From the NCBI RefSeq assembly GCF_026210795.1, contig NC_089430.1:5952001-6016000 (forward strand): a stretch of DNA of 64,000 nucleotides, given 5' to 3'. Made by a program: the position numbers and the translations under genes. Source of the stretch: Rhizophagus irregularis (Eukaryota). Under the pieces are notes generated by a model, which did no database searches, was not told the DNA's origin, and worked only from the letters and a program-made list of their open reading frames with translations. Of the stretch, positions 24,306 through 28,933 are shown piece by piece (the first letter of the stretch is position 1; every line of letters begins with the position of its first letter).

Positions 24306-27300
24306 ATGACTAGTGAAGAAAGGACTTTAGAGGAGTTATTAAGAGAAATTCTACGACTTAATTATGATAAGCCTAAAATTTGTGATTTAGTAAATGAAGG
24401 AATTTTGAGCGTTCAAGTAAATAAAGTTATGAAAGCTTTTGAAAATGATTCGGAAGTTTTTCCACAAGGAAATGAAATTAAGCATTGGAATAAAGTGAAT
24501 ATACGAAATTGGGCAGATTCTATAAAAGGAACAGAAATTACAAAGAATCCAGAGTTTTTAGAAGAAATGATAGCAGTTCTTAAGAGGACAAATTTCCTTT
24601 ATTGTAAGCATAATCTGAGAATAACACAAGTTTTAGCTATATTACTCTTTGTGTCACCAAATGAACAAGGAAGATTGTTACAAATATCAACAGGAGAAGG
24701 AAAGACTACCATATGTGCTATGCTCGCAAGTATTAAGGTATTGCAAGGAGAGAATGTGGATATAATAACAAGTTCCCCTATTTTAGCGAAAAGAGATGCT
24801 GAAGAGAGAGAAAGTTTCTATAAAATATTAGGAATCAGTTGTGGGTCTAATGAAGGCGAAGACTATTCATTAAGCATAGTAGATGGTCGTAATGGAATTC
24901 AATTAGAAACAAATAAGAACTGCTATTTTAAAAATATAGTATATGGGGATGTAAGCGAATTTCAGTTTGATTGGCTAAAACATGAACATAAGAAAATAGG
25001 TACTAAAGGAAATAGAGGGTTTGGTGTAGTAATTGTAGATGAAGTAGATACCATGATAATTGATGACTGTAGCAGGAGTGCAAGGTTAACAGGAGAACTG
25101 GCAGGGTTTGAATATTTAAATCCAGTATTTTGTGGGGTAGCAAATGAGTTAACTAGATTAAGCAAGCGAATAATACGGACAGAAGAGAATTTAATATATT
25201 TAGATGGTGAGTTCAAAGAAGGAGGAGAACTTATCTTAGGAGAAGAGATAAAATGCTATGAAATAAATAATTGGTATGAATTTATCTCTGAATATTTAAC
25301 AGAATTTACAATAAATATAATAAAAAAAAGGAAAATAGAACTGCCAGATTTTTTAAGAGATTTTTGTTTAAAGTCAGTAGAAGAGTTTGTTAAATCAGCA
25401 ATTGAAAGTTGGAATGTATATCAAGAGAAGATAGAATATCTAACAGTAAAAGGTAAAAATGAAAACTCGAATATTGCACCAGTTGACTATGAAAGCACGG
25501 GAATAGTGCAAGAGAATGAGACATTTTCTGATGGATTGCATCAATTTCTGCAGATAAAGCATGGGCTCAAACTTACACCTGAATCAGTAGCTACAAGCTT
25601 TGTTTCAAATATGGGATATTTTAAAAATATGGTGCTAAGATATATGGGTTAACAGGAACAATTGGATCTAAGGAGGACCAAGATATGTTATCCTCAATTT
25701 ATACAGTAGATTTTGGATTTATGCCAACATATAAAGCAAAAAAATTTAAAGAGTTAGAAGGGATAGTGACCAGTAATAAGAATGCATGGATTATGGAAGT
25801 AGTGAGTAATATAAAGCAAGAAGGAGAAAGAGGAAGAGCAGTACTAGTTATTTGCGAGACAATAGATAATGTAAAAACAATTTATGATATTCTAATAGAA
25901 GTTTATTCAACAAGGAAAATAAGGTTATATTCTAGAAATGATAATGATGAATGTTCAGCAGTAAAAGAAAGAGTTAACTCAGGAGATGTAATAATTGCAA
26001 CAAATTTAGCAGGAAGAGGAACAGATATCAAAACAAGTTTTAGCGTTGAAAAGAATGGAGGTTTACATGTAATAGTTACTTTTTTACCATCAAACTCAAG
26101 GGTAGAGGAACAAGCATTTGGGAAAACAGCAAGACAAGGAGCAAAAGGAACAGCCCAATTAATAATTAATAAAATATATACAGAAAACAAATTAAATATG
26201 ACTGGAATTTTAAGTAATATATATGAATTTAAGCAACTTAGAGATAGTAAAGAATATATAAGAATACAAACAGTTAAATTATATAAGGCAAAAGAAGTTG
26301 AATTAAGAGATAAATTATTTGAAATATATTTAGAGGTTGATAATGATTTACGAGAGATAGAAGAAAATAAGAAGAAAGAAAAGACGATATTAGACATATT
26401 AGAAAAAGATAAGAGATATAAATATAAATTACTGCAAGTAGAAGAAAAATGGGGATTAGAGCTAAAAATATTTGAAAAAACATTAGCTTATGATAGCAAA
26501 ACAAGAGAAGAACTAAAACAAGTAGCGAAAAAATTTGGATTTAAACCATATGGTAATAATGAAGCAATGTTTAGTTTATATAAGGCAATTAGTGTAAGTT
26601 TAGGAAATAAAGCAAGTAGTGAGCAGTTGCTATGGCTAGCAGTAGGTTATTTTTTAGATAATTTTACTGGAATGTATTACCGTAATGATATTAATTTTTA
26701 TAAAAAAGCTGCAAAAAGTTTTAGTGATAAAAAGGCATTAAAAAGTTTGACTTCAGTATTAGGAAGAAATATAGTAATAATAAGTAGCAATCAAGAAAAT
26801 TTGATGATTTACAAAATAAAGGATGTGAAAGAAACGATTTATATAGGTTTAGAAGATGGAAATAAAAAATATTTTAAAAATTATAGACCTTTAAGAAAAG
26901 TTTCGTATAATTATGATATAATAGAAAAGTATTCAATAAAAGTAGAAGTAAAAGCTACTGAGTATAAAAGTATTACAAATCTTTTTGAAAGAAAAGATTT
27001 AAAAAAATTGATAGATGAAATTATAAAACAAAAGTCAAAAGAAGTAGAAGAATGCAATCTAGCAAAAAGAAATGAGGGAATTAGTTATTTTAAAAATTTC
27101 TTTAATAAAATAAAAGAAGAATATAAAACAGGCAATAAAATAATGAAAAACTCAGCATATATGGTACAAATGGGAATTGAAAAGTCAGAAGTCAAAGAAA
27201 AAATAGATATATTAGAAGGTGCATGTAATTTAGAAAAAATATATTCATTGCCAGCACGTTATAATTTAGCTCATGCAGTAATTGAAGAACAGAAAGGAAA

Positions 27301-28933
27301 CTATAAACAAAAAGCCATTAAAAACTTATTAATAGCAAAAGATCAAATAAATGGAATATTAATACCTTACTTAGAATATATACAAATAACACTCCCATTA
27401 GGTCAAAGTTGTGAATTATTAAAGCAAATAATTAACAAAATAGAAATATTGAAGGCAATTAAATGTAATATTGAAGAAACAATTAAAAAATTTAGTAATG
27501 ATAATGAAGCAAACATTAAAATAAACAAAATTAGACTAGATGATTATTTTAATAAAGATAAGAATTTAAACATGGAAATAAGAGAACTAGAAAATGAAGG
27601 ATTATATTATATTTTTGATATAGAATTTGCAATAGATTGGGTTGGAGTAATATTCTTAGGAATAGCAGGAGTGGTACAAATTGGAATAGGAGCATTTTGT
27701 TTATACAAAGGACTTGATGAATTAGGGACATTTTTTATAGAAGAAGGTATTAGGGATTTAATAAATATAATAAACTTATTAATAAAAAAGCAAAAATTTG
27801 ACCTAAACGATTATATTAGTGAAAAAGCAATTAGTATATCAATGGATTTAGTTTTATTAGGAGCAAAAACAGTATTATCAAAATTACATAAACTTCCAAA
27901 AGAAATACAAATACCTAATAATTCTTCTAATTCATCCAATTTTTCAATTATATCCATATTAAAGAAAATAGGAAAAAATATGGTAATAAAGGAATGCATA
28001 CATACATTATTAGATACTAGTGCAGATAAATTTGTAAGTCTTTTTAAAGAAAAAGTAAAAGAGAATATATTAAAAGAATTAAGAGTAAGCCTAGATGACC
28101 AAATTATATTAATATATTTAAATAAGTTAATGGCAACAGATATATTATTTGAAGAAGTAGAATTAGATGAAATTACAACAAGTACATTAAAAATTTTAGA
28201 AGATAAGCGAAATATGTTTAGAGAGTTAATAGATGAAGGATTAGAAGAAATAATAAAAGATAAACATCCAGTATTTAAAGGAATTGCAATAGCAGCTAAA
28301 GTTGTAGATTCAACAATAATATTAAATAAAATAAATAAAGTAGCAAAAGAAGCAGCAAAAGAAATATCAACAACATTTAAAACTAAGATAAAAGAATCAT
28401 ATAAACAACAAACATTTGAGATAATCTTAGAAAGGGGGTTAAAGCCAAAAATAGATTTAAAAGATGCAAAAGAAATAATAATATTATTAAAAAAAGATAA
28501 AGTAATAAATGATGAAGAATTTGATGAAGACAAAGCACAAGAAATAGATTTTAAACAATATAACAATCATAAGTTAGAAATAATAAGAATATTAAGCAAA
28601 TATAATAAGTTAAGAAAAAAGGAGTACAGTTATAAAGGAAAAGAAGATTTAATAAAAAAATATGAAGAGTATATAACAAAATTTGTTTTAAATAAAATCA
28701 AAACTCAAGCATTAGGATGTTTAACAAATGTAATGACAGATAAGCTAACTGATTATATAAATGATAAGATAAGTAGTGAATGGAATAAATTTAGAAAAGA
28801 ACAAATCCAAAATTTAAAAAGTATAACTTCATTAAAGTTAGCAGAAGAATTTTCACAAAATAAAGAATTAGATAAAAAATTAAAATTGGAAATAACGAAA
28901 ATATTAAAAGCTAATTTTAAAAAAAATAAATAG
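24306..28933 (+). CDS. SecA-like DEAD ATPase + degenerate OTU-like domain + hydrophobic segment + helical tail; single -1 frameshift at ~25625
   Basis: SecA motifs in order: QISTGEGKT, LAKRDAE, IVYG..SEFQFDWL, IVDEVD, FSDGLHQFL, GLTGT, GRAVLV, IATNLAGRGTDIK, GGLHVI, SRVEEQAFGKTARQG. One added A in ttttaaaaatatgg joins the two ORFs (YFKKYGAKIYGLTGT), ~1540 aa. Confidence 0.85.

Follow-up and report, generated by a model that had tools for sequence, protein, structure and literature searches.

How does a gene for a SecA-like ATPase come to stand in the genome of the mycorrhizal fungus Rhizophagus irregularis, and can it still work there? The gene lies at positions 24306 to 28933 on the plus strand of the window, by which we mean the whole stretch of 64,000 nucleotides analysed here (contig NC_089430.1, assembly GCF_026210795.1, positions 5,952,001 to 6,016,000); we know of no SecYEG in fungi. 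Our preferred reading, to which we give a probability of about 0.6, is that the window holds a recently broken and likely non-functional copy of a toxin chassis that has no toxic tip, was acquired horizontally from an Orientia-related bacterium and was long under purifying selection. A preliminary description, made from the letters alone, had taken the locus for one continuous gene of 4.6 kb and missed a frameshift: there are two overlapping open frames, neither with an internal stop. The main features of the locus are:

24204-28973, strand not given: extent of the unspliced X16 contig, a likely transcript from an RNA-like run
24306-25652, plus strand: open reading frame 1 (ORF1), 448 aa, with N-terminal helices, the first nucleotide-binding domain (NBD1) and a preprotein-binding-like domain; premature stop at its end
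25619-25627, plus strand: frame break (-1) in a T4A5 run immediately before motif III, with the switch at about 25623
25625-28933, plus strand: ORF2, 1102 aa open, or 1082 aa from its first ATG at 25685, with motif III, NBD2, post-motor helices, pseudo-OTU, TPR-like repeats, hydrophobic segment and helical tail

The stretch is contained in 20 of 24 listed public runs, from 11 studies, ten runs being flagged as possible sources; the four that we examined by contig (X13, X16, X18 and X19) all come from those not so flagged. The contigs of three of them (X13, X16 and X18) cross the break unchanged and without insertion, which excludes both an assembly error and an intron. The X16 contig, for instance, is 4770 nt long and has 0 differences and 0 gaps against the window. 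The contigs of X19 leave a hole at 25616-25629, which we count as no evidence because this run has further holes elsewhere at a depth of about 5. In two GenBank models of R. irregularis the break is bypassed by a short predicted intron, at the cost of motif III. A further four models from this species keep the frame at this site, and their motif VI has R; they omit part of residues 368-417 and stop near residue 196 of the second frame. The Gigasporaceae models, too, are in frame at 25619-25627.

Because of the frameshift the full protein cannot be made. Translation would stop after NBD1, while frame 2, from its first ATG, has neither motif III nor NBD1, so that no working motor is expected; the window copy is likely a non-functional pseudogene, and its transcript, with a stop 3.3 kb upstream of the end, may be a decay substrate. 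Rescue of the allele by ribosomal frameshifting, or by cooperation of two polypeptides, would suit the likely full-length unspliced transcript and the two frames free of internal stops, but we hold it to be most improbable: a -1 slip at TTT-AAA in the T4A5 run meets a stop, the run departs from the slippery consensus X XXY YYZ, motif III is already passed at the first ATG of frame 2, the relatives are in frame at the break, and the same allele also carries an R-to-K change in motif VI.

The locus is fungal nuclear, as had been assumed. Named Rhizophagus irregularis models share a cluster with the proteins of the window, which are on record in a 6.1-Mb contig, and one X13 contig (23891-25328) joins the SecA-like gene to its upstream neighbour:

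23198-24017, minus strand: divergent spliced transcript that skips 23511-23588 and 23724-23783 (GT-AG on the minus strand) and has no long ORF after splicing

This neighbour lies about 190 nt from the SecA-like gene, and a shared promoter is possible. A bacterial contaminant or a misassembly, which the lack of introns, the bacterial relatives and the unusual composition might suggest, has next to no probability in view of the 20 runs from 11 studies that contain the stretch, the X13 contig, the clustering with R. irregularis models and the orthologues in four genera of Gigasporaceae. The neighbour also informs on transcription: X13 retains its introns, and since these are absent from the contigs of X16, X18 and X19, the latter runs are likely RNA and the SecA-like locus is likely transcribed, unspliced (no run is recorded as RNA, and contigs give neither strand nor level). 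The gene shows no intron in any of these three RNA-like runs, in agreement with the preliminary description.

Is the encoded protein a SecA-type motor? The motifs follow each other in the order already recognised at first reading: the Q motif (24618) within NBD1 of ORF1, Walker A STGEGKT (24687), Walker B VIVDEVD (25029), GLTGT (25646), NLAGRGTD (25994-26029) and, as motif VI, QAFGKTARQG. Pfam assigns SecA_DEAD (E 2.7e-30) to frame 1, and P-loop_SecA (E 5.3e-15) with Helicase_C to frame 2. NBD1 and NBD2 of canonical SecA with motifs I to VI are present, but divided between two frames and with a K in motif VI. This K had been presented as a feature of the family; it is private to the allele, R being found in 11 of the 12 fungal models that hold the motif (two other R. 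irregularis models included) and K solely in the model of the window allele. With canonical SecA the encoded protein shares NBD1 and NBD2, and perhaps a weak preprotein-binding domain (SecA_PP_bind, 18.7 bits in the window copy for a cut-off of 23.5, which several relatives exceed); it differs by its long extra C-terminal part and by the lack of a detected wing/scaffold or zinc tail. The absence of the usual wing/scaffold, claimed earlier, thus holds: there is no Pfam match to SecA_SW in the window copy or its relatives. We also considered the helices behind the motor as a remnant of the SecA scaffold or two-helix finger, a proposal that an HHalign probability of 0.3 to the SecA tail leaves unsupported.

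One might suppose that nucleic acid, not polypeptide, is what this motor moves, in the role of a DEAD-type helicase that serves a nuclease tip. Many tips of the bacterial relatives are indeed nucleases, no homologue of the SecA scaffold or of the two-helix finger could be recognised, and SecA_PP_bind stays below cut-off in the window copy. We nevertheless judge this improbable: among solved structures the motor matches SecA at E 1e-43 to 1e-26 and helicases at 0.06 or worse, SecA_PP_bind is above cut-off in several relatives, and lysozyme, amidase or ADP-ribosyltransferase tips would need delivery, not unwinding.

From motif VI onwards the plus strand encodes the following parts:

26111-26140, plus strand: motif VI, QAFGKTARQG, with the allele-private K
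26141-26480, plus strand: family-specific helical module in the position of the SecA scaffold/wing, with conserved R, E, D-L-F and EE-W; helices in a low-confidence model
26534-26893, plus strand: insert, likely OTU-derived, with Ser in the position of the catalytic Cys and no catalytic His
27143-27560, plus strand: N-x-x-Y motif and TPR-like helical repeats; helices at a predicted local confidence (pLDDT) of 60-80, and Pfam TPR matches here in relatives
27644-27703, plus strand: hydrophobic segment, rich in Gly and with a Gln at its centre; membrane insertion is predicted
27704-28933, plus strand: helical tail ending at a C-terminal motif common to the fungal copies

The conserved residues of the helical module are found in 75-99% of 89 family members, several of them in more than 90% of the 89 rows. 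The hydrophobic segment, noticed at the outset, is the sole 19-aa stretch in either frame with a Kyte-Doolittle value of at least 1.6 (2.36), and a similar segment occurs in 64 of 79 family rows, 250-750 aa past motif VI. Foldseek searches with models of the part after motif VI gave weak lists without a match at E<=0.001: TPR structures dominate the list of the TPR-like region (E>=0.1), and many OTU structures appear for the insert, none better than E 0.35.

The OTU assignment of the insert is indirect. Its profile matches an ORF of locus L013 (E 9e-6) that itself passes Pfam OTU, which gives transitive support, and an Atlas feature score of 0.92 links it to a cluster in which 19% of the members carry OTU; the model places helices before strands. 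No direct Pfam match to OTU was obtained, VIA-align listed no OTU but weak helical matches only (best Z 5.9), and a direct comparison with an active OTU tip found nothing. In the alignment the Cys column holds Ser, and His is absent, in the fungal and Orientia rows, and for this reason the insert is likely a catalytically dead OTU derivative; it is perhaps a ubiquitin-binding module. The OTU-like domain described earlier thus has indirect backing at most, as an inactive descendant of an OTU. We dropped the idea that the insert is unique to fungi and Orientia, since it is patchy in the wider family. At roughly its position, between motor and TPR-like region, the relative P0281 carries a CE-clan (RickCE-like) protease (residues 1243-1325).

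What are the relatives of this protein? A scan of GTDB, of which we analysed the best 80 of 360 loci (roughly the first 57 being family-like), placed the family mainly in Rickettsiales, Holosporales, Legionellales, Francisellaceae and Chlamydiae. Most members are ORFs of 1,400-4,800 aa, and four listed plasmids of intracellular bacteria bear members too. They are giant proteins that combine a common motor with a TPR-like and hydrophobic body and with exchangeable C-terminal tips. In 37 loci the ORF terminates inside the locus, and nine of these tips match toxin or enzyme families (seven above cut-off): AHH (two), colicin E3-type (two), WHH/colicin DNase, colicin D, lysozyme, OTU and lipase. 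Proteins chosen by precomputed domain annotation extend the list by Ntox17, CDI nuclease, RES, Tae4 and ADP-ribosyltransferase tips. Tips are swapped between nearly identical bodies: those of L081 and L082 are 92.6% identical over about 3,410 aa, those of P0013 and P0150 98.6% over 1,538 aa, and the tips differ in both pairs. The 23 downstream ORFs comprise three of the SUKH or Imm11 type, four of DUF6980 or DUF7674, four of other families and 12 without a match; an immunity gene thus directly follows in 3 of 23 cases, and in L081. Two of these genes form WHH-SUKH and AHH-Imm11 pairs as tabulated by Zhang et al. 2012 (PMC3482391). In two cases a colicin E3-type tip has DUF6980 behind it (L002:5269-5535 and L041:13148-13447), and DUF6980 also stands in a cassette behind another toxin (L081:11919-12242), which makes it a candidate immunity family; DUF7674 is placed likewise in L012 and L028.

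We predict from these architectures that the bacterial relatives form a polymorphic toxin system whose chassis is SecA-like; the toxin tips and immunity genes bear out the link to biological conflict that had been proposed. As in the polymorphic toxin systems described in the available parts of PMC3482391, there is a conserved body, an exchangeable C-terminal toxin and an adjacent immunity gene, with the same WHH-SUKH and AHH-Imm11 pairs. Unlike in those systems, the body of the bacterial relatives holds a SecA-like motor, the fungal copies have no tip, and no immunity gene adjoins the window copy (no plus-strand ORF of at least 90 aa was found in 28933-37374, where spliced genes could be missed).

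Where did the fungal copies come from? Their closest non-fungal matches are Orientia proteins (about 51-52% identity in the motor, 32% in the tail), which align at 37% to residues 9-1562 of the Gigaspora margarita protein P0342 (KAF0428765) and then run on for 600-650 aa to an AHH nuclease. The fungal proteins end where this extension begins, and no toxin Pfam match was found in them. In a FastTree phylogeny of 162 motor rows (199 rows thinned at 80% identity, 13 others having been dropped earlier for short or interrupted motors) the fungi are supported at 100 and fungi plus Orientia at 98, inside a Rickettsiaceae-rich clade of 50 rows; canonical SecA forms a separate clade on a long branch. 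A quick IQ-TREE of 42 motor rows supports fungi plus Orientia at 99, and the TPR/hydrophobic region alone (39 of 41 rows) at 94, independently of the motor. Tails matching that of the fungi were found in 13 of 130 scored Rickettsiaceae genomes, none above 36% (G001 and G081), and the donor therefore is likely an unsampled relative of Orientia. Transfer from bacterium to fungus is probable, judging from the nesting and the loss of the tip. The horizontal origin first suspected is thus supported by the trees; the endobacterial donor named with it is not, the nearest relatives being of Orientia/Rickettsiaceae type and no known fungal endobacterium appearing among the best 80 of the 360 GTDB loci. 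A viral origin finds no backing either: a search for viral relatives with a single query gave nothing, phage records yield no more than 24-28% matches to the motor, and IMG/VR holds two contigs at 30% with an adjoining chlamydial-type Pom gene. Metagenome scans found no relative at the fungal level of similarity.

The reverse direction has been advocated for Wolbachia: according to Duplouy et al. 2013, an old eukaryotic SecA-like family passed to bacteria, and Orientia would then have taken its gene from a fungus-like host. SecA-like proteins do occur in rotifers, ciliates, crustaceans, fish and a nematode, the available passages of PMC3639933 describe a eukaryote clade with nested bacteria, and our trees have no secure root inside the family. 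The phylogeny with bacterial, protist and animal proteins, called for from the start, makes this direction poorly credible here. An approximately unbiased (AU) test (22 rows, quick tree, Duplouy's own sequences not among them) rejects a group of the fungi with six other eukaryote rows and one nested bacterial row (p-AU 0.0003), so that the fungal clade does not join the animal and protist proteins; eukaryotic rows are scattered among bacterial ones; and Orientia has kept the toxin tip, like other bacterial members, while the fungi have none. A Francisellaceae-labelled member with a lysozyme tip (L006:11550-12539) lies very near a Tetrahymena protein in the motor tree, by recent transfer or mis-binning.

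Was the gene of use to the fungi? Orthologues are present in Gigaspora, Dentiscutata, Cetraspora and Racocetra; their motor is about 70% identical and their tail 55-60%. P0342 is full-length and gap-free (1570 aa) and is matched at 99.9%, without gaps, by a partial Logan protein. Relative to P0342, 16 of 18 aligned fungal models lack internal stretches of 13-128 aa; we did not count these gaps as lesions because that of P0124 falls where the window is open; the gap is an artefact in P0124 and hides a lesion in P0126. Where 46 bacterial rows are conserved, the fungal copies are 93.5% identical to one another, versus 64.3% at variable sites, and a simulated neutral decay to 85% identity produced a median of 17 stops, with at most one stop in 0 of 100 runs. 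These figures point to purifying selection on the fungal gene for most of its history, and since selection acted for so long, the frame break and the R-to-K change are likely recent. Between the window frames and P0012 (two R. irregularis allele types), all ten listed amino-acid differences are explicable, as inferred from the window codons, by single C/T or G/A transitions. Two proteins, P0280 (labelled Ambispora leptoticha) and P0337 (labelled Racocetra fulgida), share 99.5% identity over 591 aa, through cross-contamination or a very recent transfer.

The coding strand is A-skewed, as first described: at four-fold sites A/(A+T) amounts to 0.68, 0.82 and 0.77 in the SecA-like gene versus 0.40-0.58 in six other ORFs of the window. 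Among bacterial members, the Orientia chuto gene stands at 0.64 and six others at 0.41-0.52. These codon ends, so unlike those of the neighbours, would also suit a different history, in which selection maintains the tip-less gene outside the fungal nucleus: these fungi would harbour an unsampled carrier (endosymbiont, virus or mobile element) that repeatedly deposits decaying nuclear copies. The fungal part of an 11-row whole-length tree is star-like, and its two Racocetra copies stand apart (p 0.0003); this, the gaps in most models compared with P0342, the near-identity of the Ambispora-labelled fragment to a Racocetra copy, and the plasmid-borne bacterial members fit such a carrier. We think it unlikely, though less so than the other alternatives: no such carrier turned up in the GTDB, IMG/VR or metagenome scans, monophyly of the Gigasporaceae is not rejected (p 0.38), the model gaps need not be lesions, and the Gigaspora copies reside on contigs of 175-810 kb.

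Several observations weigh against the horizontally acquired, long-selected chassis that we prefer. The strong A skew is absent from neighbouring genes, which would fit a later arrival too; the fungal tree is star-like, and no other genus of Glomerales turned up; P0342 is the sole one of 18 aligned fungal models that is both full-length and gap-free. Orientia is a distant sister (52% in the motor, 32% in the tail), not an ancestor, and deep branches are weakly supported in these FastTree and quick IQ-TREE phylogenies. Furthermore, 28 of the 37 tips and 12 of the 23 downstream ORFs have no informative Pfam match, the AlphaFold models are weak (mean pLDDT 52) and mostly helical, and self-threading and membrane insertion are deduced from architecture; the polypeptide threading put forward in the preliminary description likewise stays at the level of inference.

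On the preferred reading, the bacterial motor would hydrolyse ATP and thread the C-terminal part of its own protein; the conserved hydrophobic segment would enter a membrane, the tip, often a nuclease, would reach a rival or host compartment, and the product of the next gene would protect the producer. The fungi would have acquired the gene once, before the split of Glomerales and Gigasporaceae, and lost the tip, and the remaining chassis would have served in conflicts as a protein that inserts into membranes under the drive of ATP, while the gene was duplicated and often lost. A bolder generalisation, which we offer tentatively and believe somewhat less than its opposite, is that Rickettsiales, Holosporales, Legionellales and Chlamydiae share a class of self-delivering polymorphic toxins, so far undescribed, with a built-in SecA-type motor, and that an ancestor of the arbuscular mycorrhizal fungi, hosting an Orientia-like symbiont, captured one such gene, discarded its tip and turned what was left into a domesticated membrane weapon or translocase, driven by ATP and intact in Gigaspora to this day.

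Around the locus lie remains of Tc1 and MULE transposases, a 41-nt hairpin (29223-29308) at the start of a repeat zone of very high depth, resembling a miniature inverted-repeat transposable element, and 74-nt tandem repeats (31545-31757). Further away, at 6184-7683 on the minus strand, an intronless gene encodes a 499-aa amidohydrolase (Pfam Amidohydro_1, E 1.8e-58), which we take to be guanine-deaminase-like.

The broad SecA-like family is already known, and self-export by a SecA domain has been proposed for other giant proteins. The eukaryote-like secA genes of Wolbachia wBol1 and wHa, insects and protists (PMC3639933; phage WO module, PMC5062602) belong to the same broad family and likewise are long, largely intronless and present in eukaryotes and intracellular bacteria; the available passages, however, mention no fungi, toxin tips or immunity genes and infer transfer from eukaryote to bacterium, whereas the fungal clade groups with Orientia. 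The giant proteins of Omnitrophota and actinobacteria (bioRxiv 2023.11.21.568195; PMC8195603) also unite a wingless SecA-like motor and membrane segments in one chain, in the accessible text with self-export as the proposed role; unlike ours, they belong to other lineages and architectures, and the comparison is by description only. The accessible text of PMC3482391 mentions SecA-like domains once, among effector domains of Amoebophilus, and that of PMC9111745 cites Gillespie et al. 2018 for large modular toxins with antidotes. In the literature as far as accessible, including PMC8163844 and PMC10732058, we found no description of SecA-motor polymorphic toxins of intracellular bacteria or of the fungal clade, part of which Gillespie et al. 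2018 may cover; nor does the SecA-like gene appear in the searched text or three supplements of PMC5982333, on gene transfer in R. irregularis.

The family would thus represent a toxin-delivery chassis, possibly independent of a separate secretion machine, that has spread over intracellular bacteria and turns up repeatedly in eukaryotes, and the published eukaryote-to-bacterium direction for these genes is called into question. A past association of Rickettsiaceae with mycorrhizal fungi is suggested as well; to our knowledge, no Rickettsiaceae symbiont of these fungi has been reported. In the available part of a review of endofungal bacteria (PMC12306442), Rickettsia is named only as a comparison. 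With the gap-free protein of Gigaspora at hand, the chassis idea becomes testable.

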